Of a stretch of 7,184 nucleotides of DNA, positions 1 through 7,184 are shown piece after piece. Location: positions 1 through 7,184 of the IMG/VR virus record IMGVR_UViG_2617270940_000007. One strand, 5' to 3'. This DNA comes from a virus (Duplodnaviria > Heunggongvirae > Uroviricota > Caudoviricetes). The translations under genes and the position numbers were made by a program. The first letter of the stretch is position 1. Each line of letters starts with the position of its first letter. Below the pieces are notes generated by a model. That model had not been told where the DNA came from and searched no databases. It worked only from the letters and a program-made list of their open reading frames with translations.

Positions 1-65
1 AACCAATATCACTTAAATAAGTGATAGTCTTAATACTAGTTTTTAGACTAGTCATTGGAGAGCAG

Positions 66-431
66 ATGATTGATGTCTTAGGACCGGAGAAACGCAGACG
101 GCGTACTACACAGGAAAAGATCGCTATTGTTCAGCAGAGTTTTGAACCGGGAATGACGGTCTCCCTTGTTGCCCGGCAACACGGTGTGGCAGCCAGCCAG
201 TTATTTCTCTGGCGCAAGCAATACCAGGAGGGAAGTCTTACTGCTGTGGCCGCAGGAGAGCAGGTCGTTCCTGCCTCTGAACTTGCTGCTGCCATGAAGC
301 AGATTAAAGAACTCCAGCGCCTGCTCGGCAAAAAAACGATGGAAAATGAACTCCTTAAAGAAGCCGTTGAATACGGGCGTGCAAAAAAGTGGATAGCGCA
401 CGCGCCCTTATTGCCCGGGGATGGGGAGTAA
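66..431 (+). CDS. insC: IS2 transposase OrfA (InsC), 121 aa, helix-turn-helix DNA-binding subunit
   Basis: ORF-track protein [40 protein letters not shown]... matches IS2 InsC as I recall it; chosen start is the ATG at 66 rather than the ORF-track upstream extension at 21. Confidence 0.9.
383..389 (+). other. Programmed -1 ribosomal frameshift motif A_AAA_AAG of IS2 (orfA to orfB)
   Basis: Heptamer aaaaaag at 383-389 in the insC frame (A-K-K-W) exactly where the insD frame opens; A6G slippery sites are the established mechanism in IS3-family elements. Confidence 0.75.
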
Positions 432-1294
432 GCTTAGTCAGCCGTTGTCTCCGGGTGTCGCGTGCGCAGTTGCACGTAATTCTCAGACGAACCGATGACT
501 GGAAAGATGGTCGCCGCAGCCGTCACTCAGATGATACGGATGTGCTTCTCCGTATACACCATGTTATCGGAGAGCTGCCCACGTATGGTTATCGTCGGGT
601 ATGGGCGCTGCTTCGCAGACAGGCCGAACTTGATGGTATGCCTGCGATCAATGCCAAACGTGTTTACCGGATCATGCGCCAGAATGCGCTGTTGCTTGAG
701 CGAAAACCCGCTGTACCGCCATCGAAACGGGCACATACTGGCAAAGTGGCCGTGAAAGAAAGCAATCAACGATGGTGCTCTGACGGGTTCGAGTTCCGCT
801 GTGATAACGGAGAAAAACTGCGAGTCACGTTCGCGCTGGACTGCTGTGACCGTGAGGCACTGCACTGGGCAGTCACTACGGGCGGCTTCGACAGTGAAAC
901 AGTACAGGACGTAATGCTGGGAGCGGTGGAACGCCGCTTCGGCAACGAGCTTCCGGCGTCTCCAGTAGAGTGGCTGACGGATAATGGTTCATGCTACCGG
1001 GCTAATGAAACACGGCAGTTTGCCCGGATGTTGGGGCTTGAACCGAAGAACACGGCGGTGCGGAGTCCGGAGAGTAACGGCATAGCAGAGAGCTTCGTGA
1101 AAACGATAAAGCGTGACTACATCAGTATCATGCCTAAACCAGACGGGTTAACGGCAGCAAAGAACCTTGCAGAGGCGTTCGAGCATTATAACGAATGGCA
1201 TCCGCATAGTGCACTGGGTTATCGCTCGCCACGGGAATATCTGCGGCAGCAGGCCAGTAATGGGTTAAGTGATAACAGGTGTCTGGAAATATAG
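389..1294 (+). CDS. insD: IS2 transposase OrfB (InsD), DDE catalytic domain; expressed as InsCD fusion by -1 frameshift
   Basis: 301-aa ORF in the -1 frame relative to insC, overlapping its 3' end; GTG start at 389 lies inside the slippery heptamer; stop TAG at 1292-1294 inside the right inverted repeat. Confidence 0.9.
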
Positions 1295-1305
1295 GGGCAA
1301 ATCCA
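1265..1305. repeat. IS2 right terminal inverted repeat (IRR)
   Basis: Terminal ~41 bp ending ...tggaaatataggggcaaatcca; the matching left repeat lies outside the window, so pairing cannot be verified here. Confidence 0.6.
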
Positions 1306-1679
1306 CCTACTGCCATTACCCACACTTTCATCATTTCACGTAAACGAAGAGAAAAGCGCACCTGCCATTACTCCATACACGGAGAAGAACAATCACCAAA
1401 ACGACGGGAACAACCCAGACGAAAACACAGAGAAGAACCACCTCAAGAAGAACGAAACCACATACGCCGGTAGAGAGTACAAACCACCCATTTCACCCAC
1501 AGGAATAGTCGCCGTATTGAGCGTTATCAGAGAGAAGGTTTATGCCCACATAAGAGAGAAAATTCGAGGGAGGTATAAGTGGGAAGGGGAAGAGGGGTAT
1601 CGCTACTTTTTCCGTATAAATTCAAGCCATAGTTTTCGTCCCCCGTAACGTCCCTATCCACCCCTTCGGTCAGCCTTCG

Positions 1680-1830
1680 GGCCATCCAGGGAAAAGGCCA
1701 TGTCCCTTTTCAGGAACGGGAGCGTCGCCGCAGGGAAAAGGCTGGAGGTTTTCAGGGAAACGGTGGGAATCCCGCTGTACGAACCGGGAAAAGGCTGGCT
1801 GCCGGTCGGGAAACGGGTACATCCCGGTAC
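1680..1830. repeat. GC-rich array of ~6 degenerate direct repeats (core GGGAAA(A/C)GG, ~22-bp period); iteron-like or protein-binding array
   Basis: Units cagggaaaaggc (~1687), caggaacggg (~1711), cagggaaaaggc (~1731), cagggaaacgg (~1753), ccgggaaaaggc (~1784), cgggaaacggg (~1807); no credible ORF across it. Confidence 0.5.
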
Positions 1831-2134
1831 AGAGTGAGGGACGACTGCGGGAGCGGTGCGGGAAATCTTCGGGAGTGCGCCTTACTCTTCACTCGCCTGA
1901 AAATCGCGGGGGAGTGTCATTCCCTCTCGTGCAGCTACTGGACTCCAGTCTGCCAGACCATCATCGGGTCTCAAGCGATTTCAGTAGGTTTTCGGGGAGA
2001 AGAAAATTCTGCCCACCAGCCCCGCGGCGCGCGTAGAGCAGAATATCGTAAATACTGGCTCCCGTGTCGTTCCCGGATATTCACTGCCCAGCCTGGCTTT
2101 CCCGACATAAAATCCTTTTTCGCCTTTGTCTTAT

Positions 2135-2170
2135 TGCGATAATAACACCAATAAGTAAACAACATATTTA
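2135..2170 (+). promoter_or_regulatory. Promoter module A: extended -10 (TGcGATAAT) followed by degenerate AAACAA-N-ATTTA operator-like element
   Basis: ttgcgataataacaccaataagtaaacaacatattta aligns with modules D (4651-4686) and E (5135-5170); lies ~30 bp upstream of RBS gagga and ATG 2202. Confidence 0.4.
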
Positions 2171-2201
2171 GACGTTATAGAAACGAAGTGAGGATGAAGA
2201 G

Positions 2202-2418
2202 ATGATTAAGATGCCTGTGACGGTTGAGGTGTGGGGCGTGGATTCCCTGGCTGAGTGTCTGGATGCAGTGGGGCCGGAGTTGTACCGCAAGTTGTGGTCG
2301 TTCGTCCCGCAGAAGGGGAATCGCCCAAAGGGAAGGATATCTGGCATCTGCTGAGTGAAGATGAAAAGCGGGAGCTGGTGGACGCGGTACACAGCGAGTT
2401 CCCGGAGGACGAAGATTA
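2202..2418 (+). pseudogene. Small ORF (~72 aa if repaired) split by an apparent frameshift near 2331-2336; hypothetical protein
   Basis: RBS gagga 8 nt before ATG 2202; frame 0 gives MIKMPVTVEVWGVDSLAECLDAVGPELYRKLWSFVPQKGNRPKG then stops at 2352-2354; the -1 frame continues KDIWHLLSEDEKRELVDAVHSEFPEDED to TAA ~2416-2418. Both halves look protein-like. Below the ORF-track length cutoff. Confidence 0.3.
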
Positions 2419-2510
2419 AGAGTGAGGTCACCAGCACGGTGGCTTTTGTCGCTATTAACCTCCGGGGCAGCGCAGCACCGTAACGATATACTCTGTGGCC
2501 GTTTTCTTAC

Positions 2511-2548
2511 TGGTATTGTTTACGCAATTCAGAAAACAACATGTTTAA
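2511..2548 (+). promoter_or_regulatory. Promoter module B: extended -10 (TGgTATTGT) plus AAACA-aca-TGTTT palindrome in the 5' UTR
   Basis: ctggtattgtttacgcaattcagaaaacaacatgtttaagga; near-identical in layout to module C (2992-3037); immediately precedes RBS aagga and ATG 2559. Confidence 0.5.
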
Positions 2549-2558
2549 GGATTGCTTT

Positions 2559-2888
2559 ATGTTTGCAAATATCGACATCAACCAAATCAAGAAAATGACT
2601 CAAAAAGAGTTTGACCAGTTTTATGAGTTAGAAGGTTGGTCTTCCACGCTGATCAATTCGCGCTGGGTGCTTGAGCTGATGACTCGTGATGATGCTCCTG
2701 CTTTGATTATTTGCGACATGGGTGAAGATGCTGACTTTATGGATATGAGCGAATTTTGTGTGGACACATACAACCGCAGCCAGAAGTACTACTTCACATG
2801 CGATAGCGAGAATGACGTGATTTCTAAGCTCTATCTTCACCTTGTCCAGCATTGGGACGTGCAGGAATTCCTTGAGTTATTCGCGTAA
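2559..2888 (+). CDS. Hypothetical small acidic protein, 109 aa (cassette gene 1)
   Basis: ORF-track 2541..2888; start moved to ATG 2559 because 2541 lies inside the operator palindrome and 2559 has an aagga RBS at suitable spacing; followed by a hairpin at 2898-2920. No recognisable family. Confidence 0.6.
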   Translation: MFANIDINQIKKMTQKEFDQFYELEGWSSTLINSRWVLELMTRDDAPALIICDMGEDADFMDMSEFCVDTYNRSQKYYFTCDSENDVISKLYLHLVQHWDVQEFLELFA

Positions 2889-2897
2889 GCCCAACCA

Positions 2898-2925
2898 AAG
2901 CCAGCACCGCCTGCTGGCTTAACTT
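2898..2925 (+). terminator. Hairpin (aagccagc-accgcct-gctggctt) with weak U-tract; putative terminator of gene 1
   Basis: 8-bp inverted repeat 10 nt after the stop codon; downstream tract ttaacttctc is only moderately T-rich. Confidence 0.4.
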
Positions 2926-2991
2926 CTCTGTAGCCGTAGGGAAGAACCACCTTTAGATAATTCATGTGCCTGAGCAATATGCTTTGTAGCC

Positions 2992-3037
2992 GTTTTTACA
3001 CTGGTATTATTTACGCCATTGAGAAAACAATTTGTTT
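2992..3037 (+). promoter_or_regulatory. Promoter module C: extended -10 (TGgTATTAT) plus AAACAA-t-TTGTTT palindrome in the 5' UTR
   Basis: gccgtttttacactggtattatttacgccattgagaaaacaatttgtttacgg; homologous to module B over ~50 bp; precedes RBS ggag and ATG 3049. Confidence 0.5.
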
Positions 3038-3048
3038 ACGGAGTAGTG

Positions 3049-3360
3049 ATGAATACTTCATTGGTGCTGGGTCTTGCTGAAGGCCAGGAGAGAAAAGAAA
3101 AACCAACCTTAATGGGGCATCTCACATTGCTGGATATCGTAGCGAATGGGACTTCTATCCGTCTGTTTCGTGAAAAAGCCATTACCTTCGACGCGGGCAA
3201 TTTTACGCGCTATGTGATGGTAGTTCGTCGCCGGCGTGGAAGAGGGTGGATGTCGGTCCAGAAAATGTGGCCAGAGGACCAGCTTGAACTGGCGCTGATG
3301 GAAGCTAACCGTGTCGCCCAACAAGAGATCCAACGAGCGTCTGTTCAGGCGGTAGCTTAA
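3049..3360 (+). CDS. Hypothetical protein, 103 aa (cassette gene 2)
   Basis: ORF-track 3019..3360 begins at a TTG inside the operator; ATG 3049 preceded by ggag is the likelier start; Rho-independent terminator follows. No recognisable family. Confidence 0.55.
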   Translation: MNTSLVLGLAEGQERKEKPTLMGHLTLLDIVANGTSIRLFREKAITFDAGNFTRYVMVVRRRRGRGWMSVQKMWPEDQLELALMEANRVAQQEIQRASVQAVA

Positions 3361-3394
3361 ACATGTGCAAGCAGTAGTTAGTCGAATGTACGAC

Positions 3395-3424
3395 AGCCCC
3401 GCCAATCCTTCGGGGCTTTTTTGT
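3395..3424 (+). terminator. Rho-independent terminator (agccccg - loop - cggggct + TTTTTT)
   Basis: GC-rich 7-bp stem with ccttcgg-type loop followed directly by a six-T run, 35 nt after the gene 2 stop. Confidence 0.7.
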
Positions 3425-3449
3425 ATTGTAAGTACTTACTTATGATAAT
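3421..3449 (+). promoter_or_regulatory. Sigma70-like promoter (TTGTAT - 17 bp - GATAAT) with a perfect 12-bp palindrome GTAAGTACTTAC in the spacer
   Basis: -35 TTGTAT at 3421-3426, -10 GATAAT at 3444-3449, spacer 17 bp; palindrome at 3428-3439 overlaps the spacer (operator-like); AT-rich leader then strong RBS aggag 6 nt before ATG 3482. Confidence 0.5.
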
Positions 3450-3481
3450 AAAATTAAAAATTAAACAATAAGGAGAGTGAA

Positions 3482-3877
3482 ATGACCGTTAAACGCGAAA
3501 ATCTGACCCTGGATATGTATTATGCATCAGAGACGGAAAATGGAGACAAAGTTGCAAAAATTACAATTGTGCTACGCGATAATGCCTCCGGCGAAGAAGT
3601 TCACACCAGTACCTTAACTCGCACCGGCGAGGCGACAAAGGGGAAATATTCGGTGCGTTACCAAAGCATCAGTAATGCTTCTGACCCTTTACTGATAAAA
3701 CTGGAAACTCATTTCCGTGGCGCGGATCAGACGTTGTTTGAAAATTTGATGAAAAAGGTCGATACGGTTTATACATCGAGTTTAAATACCAATAGTACCT
3801 GGATGGGACAACACGGTCTGCGAATAATCTCCGGCGAAAAGATCGACACCATTGTCCCTGAAAGCGTATTCGCTTAA
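3482..3877 (+). CDS. Hypothetical protein, 131 aa (cassette gene 3)
   Basis: Strong RBS aggag at 3471-3475, 6 nt before the ATG; own promoter and own terminator; no recognisable family. Confidence 0.65.
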   Translation: MTVKRENLTLDMYYASETENGDKVAKITIVLRDNASGEEVHTSTLTRTGEATKGKYSVRYQSISNASDPLLIKLETHFRGADQTLFENLMKKVDTVYTSSLNTNSTWMGQHGLRIISGEKIDTIVPESVFA

Positions 3878-3886
3878 TCCTCTTTG

Positions 3887-3916
3887 AATGGCGCGTAAAC
3901 CGCGCCATTTTCTTAT
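3887..3916 (+). terminator. Rho-independent terminator (aatggcgcg-taaac-cgcgccatt + T-rich tract)
   Basis: Perfect 9-bp inverted repeat 10 nt after the gene 3 stop, followed by ttttcttatg. Confidence 0.65.
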
Positions 3917-3921
3917 GTCCG

Positions 3922-3936
3922 ATAACAATTTGTTTT
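3922..3936 (+). promoter_or_regulatory. Operator-like palindrome AACAA-t-TTGTT (copy F of the conserved motif) upstream of gene 4
   Basis: gataacaatttgttttctg matches the core palindrome of modules B-E; the -10 context differs (GATAAC abuts the palindrome), so the promoter assignment is less certain. Confidence 0.35.
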
Positions 3937-3994
3937 CTGCCTTATCTGATTTGTGAAAATGATTTCACTGAAGCAACTTAATAAGGAAACCATC

Positions 3995-4369
3995 ATGGGA
4001 CTTGATATATATATCGAGACGCAGCCTAAAAACGATCTGAATAACGAGGCATCCAGAAAGCAGGTTGCTTACTTCCGTAAGTTCAATGCGCTCGTTGGGT
4101 GGATGGAGCGCAACGTAGGTGAAGTCGAAAATTGTGAGCTTTTAGAATTAACGATGAATGACATTTGTTTTCTGAAGGCTCATTTGATGCACATAAACGA
4201 AAGTAATTGCGAAGAGTACTTGCCTACCCAGGAAGGTTCTTTCTTCGGCAGTCAGGAGTACGATGAAGGTTACTGGCATGATGTGGGGGAGTTGAAAGAG
4301 ATTGTGGAAGATCTGATTAAGAACCACGACTTTCACAATAATAGACTGACCTTCTGCGCCTGGTGGTAA
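3995..4369 (+). CDS. Hypothetical acidic protein, 124 aa (cassette gene 4)
   Basis: ORF-track 3953..4369 starts at GTG with no RBS; ATG 3995 has aagga 7 nt upstream; stop TAA overlaps the start of the next small ORF (taaatATG). Confidence 0.55.
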   Translation: MGLDIYIETQPKNDLNNEASRKQVAYFRKFNALVGWMERNVGEVENCELLELTMNDICFLKAHLMHINESNCEEYLPTQEGSFFGSQEYDEGYWHDVGELKEIVEDLIKNHDFHNNRLTFCAWW

Positions 4370-4371
4370 AT

Positions 4372-4515
4372 ATGGGCGATTTCAAGAAACGCCTGAAGGA
4401 GAGAGCCGAGATGGTCAGAAAGCGAAACGCCTCTTCTGTCATAAGATACGCAAGGCAGTTTAGTCGCAACAACAAATCAGTTGAGGAAAAGATCCTTAGC
4501 GTAATCGGGCGATAA
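4372..4515 (+). CDS. Small basic ORF, 47 aa (or 34 aa from internal ATG 4411 with strong RBS aaggagag); possible coupled partner of gene 4
   Basis: MGDFKKRLKERAEMVRKRNASSVIRYARQFSRNNKSVEEKILSVIGR; start overlaps the upstream stop; internal ATG at 4411 has a strong SD at 7-nt spacing; Lys/Arg-rich; followed by hairpin 4521-4544. Below ORF-track cutoff. Confidence 0.3.
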   Translation: MGDFKKRLKERAEMVRKRNASSVIRYARQFSRNNKSVEEKILSVIGR

Positions 4516-4520
4516 TTATT

Positions 4521-4544
4521 AAGGCCACCAGCATTGGTGGTCTT
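4521..4544. repeat. Hairpin repeat copy 1 (aaggccacca-gcat-tggtggtctt) carrying a Chi octamer on the minus strand
   Basis: 10-bp arms with one G:T position, 4-nt loop; flanked by ttaaatgac; near-identical element at 4992-5015 with inverted loop; ccaccagc (complement of Chi GCTGGTGG) at 4525-4532. Confidence 0.6.
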
Positions 4545-4650
4545 AAATGACTTTTAATAACCGAAGGTTAGTTTGAAACCTGGCTATCAACTTCCAGAAC
4601 CTTTCTTGTGTATTCAGCCTGTATTAACTTCTTTTATGTCTTATCTACAC

Positions 4651-4686
4651 TGCGATAATTACACCAACAAGAAAACAATATGTTTA
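4651..4686 (+). promoter_or_regulatory. Promoter module D: extended -10 (TGcGATAAT) plus AAACA-ata-TGTTT palindrome in the 5' UTR
   Basis: tgcgataattacaccaacaagaaaacaatatgtttacgc; homologous to modules A and E; followed by RBS gagga (4693-4697) and ATG 4705. Confidence 0.5.
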
Positions 4687-4704
4687 CGCAGTGAGGATAT
4701 GCTC

Positions 4705-4986
4705 ATGACTGATTTCACCATTACCCCTAAAGCACAAAATGTATTCCTTGAATCATGGCTGGACTTGCCGGAAACAGAACAGCAAGAAATGGATCATGTG
4801 GAATATGACGAGCAGGTAAGCACGCGATTCTTCCACTTTGAGGGCTGCGTTTACGACATTGCCAACTTCATGCGAGATGACCGCTTCCCTGAATGGCACG
4901 CAAGCTATCCACTAAACGCCTTCGCCATGCTGATGATCCGTGTGGATGATTCAGGGGATACCATCGACATCGGTCTGCTCCACTAA
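4705..4986 (+). CDS. Hypothetical small acidic protein, 93 aa (cassette gene 5)
   Basis: ORF-track 4573..4986 would run through the promoter/operator; ATG 4705 lies 7 nt after gagga (ATG 4699 is too close to the SD). Protein MTDFTITPKAQNVFLESWLDLPETEQQEMDHVEYDEQ... is Asp/Glu-rich. No recognisable family. Confidence 0.6.
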   Translation: MTDFTITPKAQNVFLESWLDLPETEQQEMDHVEYDEQVSTRFFHFEGCVYDIANFMRDDRFPEWHASYPLNAFAMLMIRVDDSGDTIDIGLLH

Positions 4987-4991
4987 AGAGT

Positions 4992-5015
4992 AAGGCCACC
5001 AATGCTGGTGGCCTT
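4992..5015. repeat. Hairpin repeat copy 2 (aaggccacca-atgc-tggtggcctt) carrying a Chi octamer on the plus strand
   Basis: Perfect 10-bp arms; loop atgc is the reverse complement of the copy-1 loop gcat; GCTGGTGG at 5004-5011; followed by ttaaatgac as in copy 1. Confidence 0.6.
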
Positions 5016-5116
5016 AAATGACCATCCTGTTTTCTGCAGGCTAAAAACACCAACCTCTTACCTCCAGGCAACCGACAAACCCACCTGTTCCCGTCCGGCT
5101 ACCGCAACTTTCCACT

Positions 5117-5170
5117 TTGACGCCTTATTCGTACAACGATAATTAACACAAACAAGAAAACAATTTGTTA
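5117..5170 (+). promoter_or_regulatory. Promoter module E: TTGACG -35-like, cGATAAT -10, then AAACAA-t-TTGTTA palindrome in the 5' UTR
   Basis: ttgacgccttattcgtacaacgataattaacacaaacaagaaaacaatttgttatttacg; homologous to modules A and D; RBS aagga (5179-5183) 7 nt before ATG 5191. Confidence 0.5.
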
Positions 5171-5190
5171 TTTACGATAAGGAATTAATC

Positions 5191-5673
5191 ATGAATTTTA
5201 TCGCTACTGTAAACGCACCCGCACATGGCAATATCGCTGTAACGTTCTCTGACATTGAAAAACGAGTACTTGGTGCATGGCGCGACAATGAGACGGTAGA
5301 ACTGTCAGCACAAGAAAAATGCATTATTGCACGCGACATCATTGGCAATCGTCGTTACTCGCGGGTATTTGAGAAAGCATATGTGGTAAATTCTGGATTC
5401 GGAACGTTCGTCTTTCCGGTGCGCTCCGGGCGATTCTGCCAGTCCAAGCTGATTGAGTTCGCTACGCAGATTTCTGTCTGGATTAAAACTCAATCGTCGT
5501 TCAAATTTTCCGACGATGAAGCAGTATCGCAGGGGATGCGGATCGCCAACAATGCAATAAAATGCAAAAACATTACGTATGCCGCTGGCGTTGACACATG
5601 GAAACTGTTTTGCGCTAACTTTATGCTGAATGTATACGCAAGCAACCGCATCCACATCCTTGATGGCGTGTAA
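5191..5673 (+). CDS. Hypothetical protein, 160 aa (cassette gene 6)
   Basis: Good RBS, own promoter module, and a hairpin terminator immediately downstream; no recognisable family. Confidence 0.65.
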   Translation: MNFIATVNAPAHGNIAVTFSDIEKRVLGAWRDNETVELSAQEKCIIARDIIGNRRYSRVFEKAYVVNSGFGTFVFPVRSGRFCQSKLIEFATQISVWIKTQSSFKFSDDEAVSQGMRIANNAIKCKNITYAAGVDTWKLFCANFMLNVYASNRIHILDGV

Positions 5674-5676
5674 CTG

Positions 5677-5706
5677 AGAAGAGGGCCAGAAACGGCCCTT
5701 TCTCTA
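5677..5706 (+). terminator. Rho-independent terminator (agggcc-agaaac-ggccct + tttctct)
   Basis: GC-rich stem 4 nt after the stop codon, followed by a T-rich tract. Confidence 0.6.
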
Positions 5707-5716
5707 TAGCCACCAG

Positions 5717-5900
5717 CTGCCGCAGGGAAATTTTCAGAAACGGCGAGGAACGCATTCATGAGCCGAAGGGAAACGACCATGAAATTTTCTGGAAACGGCG
5801 GGGGGCGCCTTTATGTAGAAAACTGAGCGGGAGAAACCCGGAATCGCGCCAGAAATTGCGTAGCGGCGCTGGGGCAGCGCTGGTGGGGTTTCAGCCCCTG
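5717..5900. repeat. Second GC-rich repeat block (GGGAAA / GAAACGG units), homologous to the 1680-1830 array
   Basis: gccgcagggaaa...ttttcagaaacggcg matches gccgcagggaaaaggctggaggttttcagggaaacggtg in array 1, as if with a ~10-bp deletion; shared gggccatccag motif (1677-1687 and ~5892-5902); Chi octamers at both edges (5710-5717 minus strand, 5879-5886 plus strand). Confidence 0.45.
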
Positions 5901-6088
5901 GGCCATCCAGATAGCTTTCGCTATGTGATTATGTGAATCCGTGGGTAAATCACTGTAAGCGCGTACACGTTGCCCAACGTGGCAATCATATGCGAGCGGA
6001 TACAAAACAACACAAAGAGCCGATCCGCGCCGACAAATAAATGCGGATCACATAGCAAGACTAAAAGCCAATGATTAACCATACTCTA

Positions 6089-6109
6089 TAGCGCAATATA
6101 ACGCGTTTT
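6089..6109. repeat. Hairpin (taacgcg-ttttaag-cgcgtta)
   Basis: Perfect 7-bp inverted repeat in an AT-rich intergenic region; member of a local family of GCGC-stem hairpins. Confidence 0.4.
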
Positions 6110-6216
6110 AAGCGCGTTAATGTGTTAAGTAATGGGTATGTACTGACAAGGATATAAAAGCGCGTCTATGGCGTTATTTTGGTGCTTATTTTTATGTTGT
6201 TGGAGCGAGTTAAAGA

Positions 6217-6246
6217 CAATAAAAAACGCGCCAATGATGGCGCGTT
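6217..6246 (-). terminator. Hairpin (aacgcgcc-aatgat-ggcgcgtt) followed by a T-run on the minus strand; second of two tandem minus-strand terminators
   Basis: Perfect 8-bp stem; on the minus strand the stem is followed directly by TTTTTT (plus-strand aaaaaa at 6221-6226). Confidence 0.5.
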
Positions 6247-6265
6247 ATGGTGGGAGTATTGGAAA

Positions 6266-6290
6266 CGAAAAAAGCGCCCATAGTGGGCGC
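6266..6290 (-). terminator. Rho-independent terminator of the 76-aa minus-strand gene (gcgccca-tag-tgggcgc + TTTTTT)
   Basis: Perfect 7-bp stem 6274-6290, followed on the minus strand by six T; lies 7 nt past the stop codon (6297-6299) of the 6297..6527 gene; the same 17-bp palindrome recurs at 6547-6563. Confidence 0.7.
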
Positions 6291-6296
6291 TCGATT

Positions 6297-6527
6297 TTAT
6301 TTGTGTAAACTAATTTTGAATCCCATTTCTACAAACGCTTTTAACATTAAAAATATATCAGCGTCATTCACGTCTGCTTTTTTTCGCTCCTGGTCGTTCA
6401 ATAAGTCAATTTTGCGCGTTGTTTCATTTATAAACTCGACTGCGCGCCCAGCGATCCCAGCGATCCCAGCGATGCGATTAACATAATATTCATTATGGAC
6501 GTTAACGCCAGCGATAAGAACAAACAT
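6297..6527 (-). CDS. Hypothetical small protein, 76 aa, containing an in-frame (IAG)x3 tandem repeat
   Basis: Minus-strand ORF with strong SD aaggag 7 nt before the ATG; bracketed by two identical 17-bp hairpins (6274-6290 and 6547-6563); terminator downstream. No recognisable family. Confidence 0.55.
   Translation of the reverse strand: MFVLIAGVNVHNEYYVNRIAGIAGIAGRAVEFINETTRKIDLLNDQERKKADVNDADIFLMLKAFVEMGFKISLHK
6447..6473. repeat. Perfect 9-bp tandem repeat (cccagcgat)x3 inside the 76-aa gene
   Basis: Three head-to-tail copies; on the coding (minus) strand atcgctggg x3 encodes Ile-Ala-Gly x3, so copy-number change would preserve frame. Confidence 0.8.
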
Positions 6528-6546
6528 GATTAAGCTCCTTAAAACT

Positions 6547-6563
6547 AGCGCCCATAGTGGGCG
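6547..6563. repeat. Second copy of the 17-bp palindrome gcgcccatagtgggcgc, between the two minus-strand genes
   Basis: Identical to 6274-6290; sits between the stop of the upstream minus-strand fragment (6578) and the SD/ATG (6527) of the 76-aa gene. Confidence 0.6.
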
Positions 6564-6577
6564 CTATATCCATCTAA

Positions 6578-6837
6578 TTACGCTTTGAAAGCATCAGCCA
6601 GATAGTTATAAAAATCATTTTTAACGAAGCGATATTGCTGTGATCCGTTTTTCGCTGCACCCATTCCTTTGATTTTTTCGACCAGTCCCAGACGTTCGCA
6701 AAGATTGATAAGCTGGTTGGCTTGAGTGTATCCTGCGTCTAATTTTATTTCGTTGGCTTTTTTCGCTTCATTCATTAAATCGAAAACAGCGCCATTGGTG
6801 AACGTGTCGATCTCGTCGTTAATCATATCGATTAATG
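6578..6837 (-). pseudogene. 3' fragment of a gene truncated at its 5' end by IS1 insertion; hypothetical protein, tentatively phage antirepressor-like C-terminal region
   Basis: Minus-strand frame stays open from the ORF-track Met (6826) up to the IS1 boundary (6837) with no stop, so the ORF runs into the IS; the antirepressor resemblance is an impression from memory only. Confidence 0.45.
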
Positions 6838-6892
6838 GGTGATGCTGCCAACTTACTGATTTAGTGTATGATGGTGTTTTTGAGGTGCTCCA

Positions 6893-7168
6893 GTGGCTTC
6901 TGTTTCTATCAGCTGTCCCTCCTGTTCAGCTACTGACGGGGTGGTGCGTAACGGCAAAAGCACTGCCGGACATCAGCGCTATCTCTGCTCTCATTGCCGT
7001 AAAACATGGCAACTACAGTTCACTTACACCGCCTCTCAGCCCGGTACGCACCAGAAAATCATTGATATGGCCATGAATGGCGTTGGATGCCGGGCAACTG
7101 CCCGCATTATGGGCGTTGGCCTCAACACGATTTTACGTCACTTAAAAAACTCAGGCCGCAGTCGGTAA
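6893..7168 (+). CDS. insA: IS1 InsA (transposition repressor / N-terminal part of the InsAB' transposase), 91 aa
   Basis: [91 protein letters not shown]; GTG start at 6893; zinc-finger-like CxxC...CxxC motif. Confidence 0.92.
7144..7150 (+). other. IS1 A6C -1 frameshift motif (insA to insB', gives InsAB' transposase)
   Basis: aaaaaac near the 3' end of insA, the established IS1 frameshift position; the insB' frame continues beyond the window. Confidence 0.7.
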
Positions 7169-7184
7169 CCTCGCGCATACAACC

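Follow-up and report, generated by a model that had tools for sequence, protein, structure and literature searches.

What are the two GC-rich repeat blocks that bracket an array of small genes in the window, the 7,184-nt stretch of viral DNA analysed here as a whole (positions 1 to 7,184 of IMG/VR record IMGVR_UViG_2617270940_000007)? The window is a piece of an SSU5-type phage-plasmid that runs from a putative IS2-type insertion sequence to a putative IS1; the SSU5-type family, which includes Salmonella phage SSU5, the Salmonella Typhi plasmid pHCM2 and the Yersinia pestis plasmid pMT1, consists of widespread phage-plasmids. Block 1 (approximately 1670-1830) lies in the first non-coding region of the window and block 2 (approximately 5706-5910) in a 620-nt non-coding gap. 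The first-pass annotation, made from the letters of the window, had taken the blocks for related elements in direct orientation on either side of the array, and so they proved to be: both contain repeats of the same short motif, on the same strand, and they bracket the plus-strand array at 2202-5673. In the reading that we favour, with an about even chance of being right, blocks 1 and 2 are iteron-like arrays of sites that are predicted to bind one sequence-specific protein and to act at the DNA level; in the same reading, both arrays are fixed cis elements of the SSU5-supergroup phage-plasmids.

The strings quoted in the first-pass annotation all occur where it had placed them, namely gccgcagggaaa at 1727-1738 and 5719-5730, ttttcag(gg)aaacgg at 1749-1765 and 5731-5743, and gggccatccag at 1679-1689 and 5900-5910. 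The motif common to both blocks is GGGAAA[A/C]GG, often extended to GGC[Y][R]G, which gives a length of 10-13 bp, and half of the copies have TTTTC in front. There are six copies in block 1 (1689-1816) and four in block 2 (5725-5798), all on the plus strand, and two longer boxes, denoted here X and Y, are also shared between the blocks. Scores refer to a position weight matrix (PWM) built from the family sites.

1670-1689, plus strand: X box, copy 1 (TCAGCCTTCGGGCCATCCAG); matches copy 2 (5891-5910) at 17 of 20 nt; conserved across the family
1689-1697, plus strand: block 1, copy 1 of the motif (GGGAAAAGG); PWM 17.9 bits
1712-1720, plus strand: block 1, weak copy (AGGAACGGG), read from the sequence; 23 and 21 bp to its neighbours
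1733-1741, plus strand: block 1, motif copy (GGGAAAAGG); PWM 24.3 bits
1755-1763, plus strand: block 1, motif copy (GGGAAACGG) with TTTTCA in front; PWM 21.5 bits
1786-1794, plus strand: block 1, motif copy (GGGAAAAGG); PWM 17.2 bits
1808-1816, plus strand: block 1, motif copy (GGGAAACGG); PWM 18.9 bits
2013-2029, plus strand: Y box, copy 1 (CCACCAGCCCCGCGGCG); the first 8 nt are a minus-strand Chi site, and GCCCACCAGC is invariant in 11 diverse relatives
5710-5726, plus strand: Y box, copy 2 (CCACCAGCTGCCGCAGG); the first 8 nt are a minus-strand Chi site
5725-5733, plus strand: block 2, weak copy (GGGAAATTT), read from the sequence; CAGGGAA is invariant in the family
5736-5744, plus strand: block 2, motif copy (AGAAACGGC) with TTTTC in front; CAG(A/G)AACGG in all relatives
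5768-5776, plus strand: block 2, motif copy (GGGAAACGA; GGGAAACGG in most relatives); PWM 15.7 bits
5790-5798, plus strand: block 2, motif copy (TGGAAACGG; GGGAAACGG in most relatives) with TTTTC in front; PWM 22.3 bits
5891-5910, plus strand: X box, copy 2 (TCAGCCCCTGGGCCATCCAG)

The unit shared by the two blocks is roughly TTTTCAG(R)AACGG ... (A/C)AGGGAAA(A/C)G(G/A)C ... TTTTCnGG(G)AAACGG(Y)GGG. In block 1, the repeats are preceded by the X box (TCAGCC..GGGCCATCCAG) and followed by the Y box (CCACCAGCnnCCGC; at 2013 and 5710); in block 2, the order is Y box, repeats, X box, so that the shared boxes are permuted rather than collinear. Successive motif copies are spaced by 23, 21, 22, 31 and 22 bp in block 1 and by 11, 32 and 22 bp in block 2. 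Each of these spacings is at most 2 bp off a multiple of 10.5, with a phase coherence of 0.85 at 10.5 bp that random placements reach in 0.1% of cases; the copies therefore lie on one face of the DNA helix, like those of operator arrays. Co-oriented direct repeats in helical register, the arrangement expected of iterons, are thus present in both blocks (6 + 4 copies), and the 22-bp spacing is kept in the family.

How closely are the two blocks related? The first-pass annotation considered them homologous and proposed an alignment of 1620-1840 with 5690-5910. The local alignment has a score of 27, better than dinucleotide shuffles (17.8 +/- 2.6), although 7 of 1000 shuffles reach the same value; because this pairwise signal is only modestly above chance, the blocks are not alignable duplicates. 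The similarity is nevertheless beyond chance at the level of the shared motif and boxes, and it is in this restricted sense, rather than that of a whole-block duplication, that the claim of homology stands. The genome-wide comparison is more telling. As the reference relative without interruption, we used the complete E. coli plasmid pTB212 (NZ_CP033252, 110,417 bp), which has genes for phage structural proteins, the terminase, a UvsW-like helicase and a regulator of the Pfam FljA family, as well as a RepA replicon. When this 110-kb sequence was searched with a profile hidden Markov model of the family block 2 sequences, the best non-self match was block 1 (E = 1.6e-5, approximately 65-77 nt, same strand), and the reverse search with the block 1 profile led to block 2 (E = 0.0016), so that in pTB212 each block is the best match of the other's profile. 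Of the seven exact GGGAAAMGG cores in pTB212, six lie in the two blocks, on one strand; likewise, seven of the eight PWM matches at a cut-off of >=12 bits fall in the blocks, compared to 0-8 scattered matches in shuffled genomes. Outside the SSU5 family, a scan of IMG/VR for GGGAAAMGG-N-GGGAAACGG produced only unrelated tandem repeats and collagen-like coding repeats. The weak raw alignment is what speaks for a chance resemblance of two GC-rich stretches, an explanation to which we assign a negligible probability: the reciprocal best hits, the genome-wide confinement of the motif to the two blocks, and the retention of the arrays across hundreds of elements and in a distant relative exclude it.

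The conservation of the arrays was traced in 76 IMG/VR loci that were collected via the 160-aa gene preceding block 2. Block 2 was found in all 76, even where the 160-aa protein is down to 67% identity, and its strong copies lie at 90-98 and 112-120 nt past the stop codon of this gene, 22-23 bp apart; in two loci, only the second strong copy scores, and this second copy is at 112-120 nt in every listed locus. Block 1 is present 1.4-4.5 kb upstream in nearly all loci that extend far enough, with 3-5 strong copies spaced by 44/22/31/22 bp or, in another sequence type, by 22/22/22 bp. Three sequence types (L052, L070 and L077 in our numbering of loci) have no strong block 1 site within 6 kb. In L052, the 99.9% identity to its close relative L055 ends shortly before the first cassette promoter, so that a rearrangement is the likely cause of the missing block 1. 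Whole repeat units were lost in some variants (44 nt in L028 and 23 nt in L005). In the distant relative L202, which was reached via a remote homologue of the 216-aa protein encoded next to the locus, the layout is the same, with clusters of GGAAACGG at both borders of the cassette array, co-oriented with the cassettes, in surrounding sequence that is no longer alignable. Beyond IMG/VR, block 2 was detected in 768 plasmid records, normally once per record, including 55 Yersinia records with Y. pestis plasmids among them; of 30 plasmid records drawn from across the ranking, 22 have no annotation under block 2. In L077 (6574-6605), the two strong copies of block 2 both read GGGGAAAGG instead of GGGAAACGG, whereas the upstream CAGAAACGG copy is unchanged; this joint change suggests concerted evolution of the repeats.

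The short core, the single orientation, the helical phasing, the loss and gain of units in register, the restriction to two places and the position outside of promoters together argue for arrays of binding sites for one protein. The first-pass annotation had offered several meanings for the blocks, including a duplicated origin or binding array, and of these, a binding array fits best given the same properties along with the deep conservation; the blocks may also be a duplicated origin, but their motif differs from the iteron of the element's own RepA replicon. We infer that one protein would coat each array along a single helix face, that the coated arrays would probably pair by looping or handcuffing, and that the pair might then provide an additional origin used in the phage mode or a region for copy control, or might mark off the cassette locus as a boundary complex. 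In the P1 and F replicons, two iteron clusters with coding sequence between them are brought together by the protein that binds them. The clusters of P1 (incC/incA) and F (ori2/incC) resemble the arrays described here in that short direct repeats in one orientation, about two helical turns apart, form two clusters split by coding DNA. Unlike in P1 and F, the motif is unrelated to the element's own RepA iterons (AACCACTGTAGAGAG, 21-bp spacing), no gene of a Rep family is found in the interval between the arrays or next to them, this interval is 1.4-4.5 kb long and its cargo varies, and neither an AT-rich unwinding region nor DnaA boxes are evident at the arrays. The identity of the motif with the RepA origin iteron was ruled out, the RepA iterons of pTB212 being A(A/T)CCACTGTAGAGAG with a 21-bp spacing. 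The partition centromere arrays (pB171 parC1/parC2, R1 parC and TubR-tubC) differ as well, in that no ParA/ParM/TubZ-type NTPase is found among the immediate neighbours here.

Several observations weigh against a role as protein-binding arrays with an origin or control function. Searches of the neighbouring genes against Pfam, PHROGs and NCBIfam revealed no Rep family, and no partition NTPase or recombinase gene is adjacent to the arrays. No clear AT-rich unwinding element or DnaA box abuts them, the nearest AT-rich stretch (approximately 6040-6220, 38-41% GC) being at least 250 bp from block 2, and the GC skew across the whole relative tracks gene orientation, with no origin signal. There is no terminator upstream of block 1, so that this block could be transcribed in a long leader. 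The binding protein is still a matter of candidates, and the predicted binding rests on sequence features. Finally, in L077, the recognition region of the 216-aa protein is identical to that in the other loci despite the change of both strong block 2 copies to GGGGAAAGG; with the motif changed and the helix unchanged, there is no support from co-variation for this protein as the binder.

Which protein, then, could occupy the arrays? The 216-aa protein (phrog_1513) in its intact form has a C-terminal winged-helix domain of a generic kind, for which PerR, ArsR, MarR and Cdc6 score the same; its family is a tiny orphan one, with 23 representatives among 1.84 billion proteins, and its recognition region is invariant across the family. 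It is a reasonable candidate. For the 160-aa protein, no known fold was matched. A host factor may be involved instead and stays in consideration because the core is the same across host genera. It is conceivable, but improbable in our estimate, that the arrays are the paired cis sites of an SSU5-specific nucleoprotein system in which one dedicated protein would link the two borders of the early-gene cassette locus and form either a phage-mode (lytic) replication origin with its control region or an insulated loop; the winged-helix 216-aa protein and the orphan-fold 160-aa protein are the candidate bridging proteins in this scheme. If it is true, the loop, together with the flanking Chi cluster, would delimit an integron-like slot in which small early genes, possibly for anti-defence, could be exchanged as cargo.

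The alternatives to binding arrays have to be considered against the layout of the locus, which includes the following features.

1-1305, plus strand: putative IS2-type insertion sequence, left end cut by the window start; open reading frames (ORFs) at 21-431 and 389-1294
1343-2170, plus strand: conserved non-coding region of approximately 830 nt upstream of the first cassette promoter; holds block 1
2202-5673, plus strand: small-gene array; most genes have their own promoter (TGnGATAAT-type -10 and AAACAAnnTTGTTT palindrome) and terminator
5191-5673, plus strand: 160-aa gene (phrog_1641), the last in the array and its sole constant member
5674-6296: non-coding gap of 620 nt, right of the small-gene array; holds block 2
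5683-5705, plus strand: terminator-like hairpin of the 160-aa gene (GGGCC-AGAAAC-GGCCC, then TTTCTCT), read from the sequence
6292-6272 and 6246-6225, minus strand: two terminators closing the convergent minus-strand genes
6838-7184, plus strand: putative IS1 that truncates phrog_1513, the 216-aa gene, and is itself incomplete at the window end

The 5.5 kb between the two insertion sequences matches 783 plasmid records, mostly non-mobilizable IncFIB plasmids of 100-120 kb from Klebsiella, Escherichia, Enterobacter, Yersinia and Salmonella, as well as SSU5-type phages, including SSU5 and Cyrano. Both insertion sequences were assigned from their terminal sequences. Homology to the phage-plasmids starts again at approximately 1306-1333, to the right of the IS2-type element, which splits the long non-coding region upstream of block 1; this region is approximately 1.6 kb long in pTB212, and the window keeps 1343-2170 of it. 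The retained part is found in nearly all related loci at an identity of 67-98%, its length being kept. Because the relatives differ by indels (1, 11, 12, 23 and 44 nt), among them lengths that are not multiples of three, and no genes are annotated there by the Prokaryotic Genome Annotation Pipeline, it is likely to be non-coding. At the other end, the similarity of ORF 6578-6826 to the 216-aa gene of pTB212 is confined to the C-terminal part of the latter. The first-pass annotation had placed block 2 in front of the minus-strand genes, as if the blocks preceded divergent gene sets, which turned out to be mistaken: these genes run towards block 2 and end at the terminators 6292-6272 and 6246-6225. 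Block 2 is thus downstream of two convergent transcription units, between the plus-strand terminator 5683-5705 and the minus-strand terminators. The hairpin 5683-5705 is conserved and its stem shows compensating changes.

The Y box holds CCACCAGC, the complement of the E. coli Chi octamer (GCTGGTGG), and six exact Chi octamers are present in the window on alternating strands, compared to 0.20 expected, a number that none of 200 shuffles reached.

2013-2020, minus strand: exact Chi octamer
2374-2381, plus strand: exact Chi octamer
4525-4532, minus strand: exact Chi octamer
5004-5011, plus strand: exact Chi octamer
5710-5717, minus strand: exact Chi octamer
5879-5886, plus strand: exact Chi octamer (GCTGGTGG) at the right edge of block 2

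Of these sites, two flank the block 2 repeat core and two fall inside terminator hairpins of the cassettes; GCTGGTGG is kept in the right half of every block 2 sequence variant, at a varying position of the alignment. In pTB212, there are 30 Chi sites, compared to approximately 3.4 expected from length alone, and seven of the 30 are within 4 kb that include the blocks (binomial p = 8e-5). The clustering is real; it may serve end protection, cassette exchange, or both. The octamers, exact copies of E. coli Chi, stand beside the arrays (2013 on the minus strand, 5710 on the minus strand and 5879 on the plus strand), with three more in the gene array; the Chi motif is separate from the repeat core, and its activity here is putative.

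These sites bring recombination to the fore. The blocks together with Chi could be homology arms for RecBCD/RecA-mediated swapping of cassettes between related phage-plasmids, with the repeats incidental, and the variable content, from a single 160-aa gene (L074 and L078) to seven or more cassettes between constant flanks, as well as the enrichment of Chi in the window and around the blocks, with sites adjacent to block 1 and on the borders of block 2, is in line with this possibility. We nonetheless judge it unlikely as a full account: homology arms need no phased 22-bp repeat of a specific 10-mer, the repeat units are lost and gained in register, and the core is kept in the distant relative despite flanks that cannot be aligned. 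The anchor role is, however, compatible with binding arrays and need not replace them. The more specific suggestion of the first-pass annotation, that the blocks are recombination sites between which the array might be excised, found no support: the longest stretch they share is 20 nt at 85% identity, there is no recombinase gene nearby, and none of the ~76 loci has fused blocks, the shortest interval (~1.4 kb) still holding the 160-aa gene. Boundaries of the att/res type were rejected on the same grounds of the missing long identical core and window recombinase, the integrase of pTB212 being approximately 57 kb away. Another possibility is a DNA packaging site, with the repeats bound by the small terminase subunit. 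In lambda, the R elements of cosB have the heptamer CGTTTCC (GGAAACG when read on the opposite strand) in common, and a winged-helix protein binds them. The core GGAAACG of the repeats equals this heptamer, several copies lie within ~100 bp as in cosB, GAAGGGAAACGACCATG at 5765-5781 presumably resembles lambda R2, and a Chi cluster would protect DNA ends made nearby. Packaging is nevertheless very unlikely: in pTB212, terL (63,393-64,649) is approximately 9 kb from block 2 (~73,450-73,680), the locus has two arrays 1.4-4.5 kb apart in which all sites are direct, unlike cosB, no cosN-like or IHF element was identified at the arrays, and no deposited phage record begins at the locus. Contigs that end close to the locus do so at gene boundaries and are uninformative on DNA termini.

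The blocks might also act in RNA, block 1 as part of a long 5' leader and block 2 through read-through or in an independent RNA, which we consider doubtful, as we do its more concrete version, in which unstructured sites would titrate or recruit an RNA-binding protein in the manner of the CsrB/RsmZ sponges or form an antitermination signal for the cassette array. Every copy has the orientation of the cassette genes, no plus-strand terminator separates the upstream promoter-like elements from block 1 in the intact relative, most cassette genes are followed by terminators that antitermination could override, and the motif includes GGA or GGGA, with the FljA-family regulator (PF03614) encoded 2 kb away; FljA acts on mRNA. 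The similarity to CsrB/RsmZ-type RNAs extends to the many GGA-containing repeats within 150-200 nt. Unlike those RNAs, the arrays have no Rfam match and no GGA-presenting hairpins, and the part that is conserved is the tail AAACGG(C), as opposed to the A(N)GGA in a loop that CsrA recognises. At a permissive threshold, no Rfam match was found in 1600-1900 at E <= 10, and the only one overlapping block 2 was a chance-level hit to H19_3 on the minus strand (19.4 bits, compared to a gathering score of 46; E = 3.4). Single-sequence folding gave z-scores of -0.86 for block 2 and +0.48 for block 1. With RNAalifold, 17 diverse block 2 sequences (~230 nt) folded at -10.2 kcal/mol on the plus strand and -18.6 kcal/mol on the minus strand with almost no covariation, and the conserved spacer 1835-2112 showed none (covariation terms of -0.63, -0.47 and +0.16 kcal/mol). 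Hence neither strand has an Rfam match, a stable fold or covariation, and the idea of two copies of a structured element, raised in the first-pass annotation, is not borne out. A 10.5-bp helical spacing would be meaningless for RNA. Moreover, block 2 starts just past a terminator, in the gap between convergent terminators; because this conserved element lies where neither flanking transcription unit is expected to cross, a role at the DNA level is favoured for it.

Phased direct-repeat binding arrays are a well-known kind of element, from which this pair stands apart by its motif, by where it lies in the genome, on either side of a variable cassette locus, by the Chi sites that accompany it and by the lack of a recognisable partner gene. 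The searchable literature yielded no account of these arrays, of a lytic origin in SSU5 or of the SSU5 termini. The SSU5-type phage-plasmids are among the commonest in Enterobacterales, with pMT1 of Y. pestis and pHCM2 of S. Typhi among them, and their cis-acting sites beyond the RepA origin appear to be uncharted. The arrays offer mutable targets with which to locate phage-mode replication or its control, the regulation or exchange of the early locus, and DNA binding by the neighbouring orphan proteins. Even if they are ordinary operator clusters, their description would be a useful annotation for hundreds of plasmids that are now blank at block 2.

The locus contains several further repeated or conserved elements. 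The gap to the right of block 2 (5955-5975 and 5990-6300) carries additional conserved elements, including a 17-bp palindrome (CACGTTGCGCCAACGTG in most relatives and CACGTTGCCCAACGTG in the window) and several hairpins, among them the bidirectional terminators 6225-6246 and 6272-6292; the matches to small RNAs in Rfam in this gap are weak and all far below the gathering scores. Left of block 1, the stretch 1343-1520 (L001 11800-12130) is T-poor and A/C-rich, with a GC skew of -0.36 and an AT skew of +0.5. It contains repeats of CCATTAC(Y)C(M)ATAYRCGGAGAAGAACA, with approximately 5 copies in the intact relatives, and the IS2-type element landed between copies 4 and 5; a similar T-poor stretch occupies the same place in L202. 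Another repeat, ACCCACCT-N8-10-CAGGC(T/A)ACCGA, occurs upstream of cassette promoters (5041-5110 in the window and 11680-11775 in L001), with 3 copies in the long non-coding region of pTB212 and 2 before the last cassette of the window.

A promoter/operator module precedes most of the cassette genes (2107-2170, 2486-2551, 2977-3042, 3909-3938, 4623-4686 and 5115-5184). It consists of an extended -10 element of the TGnGATAAT or TGGTATTAT type, followed 10-20 nt on by the palindrome (G)AAAACAAnnTTGTTT, the copy at 3918-3938 being inverted; this recurrent palindrome is probably the operator of the element's repressor. The 'transcriptional regulator' that pTB212 encodes approximately 2 kb to the right of block 2 (L001 18219-18746) belongs to PF03614 over its full length (E = 1.5e-95), the family of FljA, the repressor of phase-1 flagellin, which is an unusual family for a phage repressor. 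The first cassette gene (2202-2420, phrog_6757; 72 aa in pTB212) has a 1-nt deletion at 2309 that shifts the reading frame. In the minus-strand 76-aa gene (6297-6527), three tandem 9-nt units (GCGATCCCA) at 6442-6473 encode a repeated IAG tripeptide.

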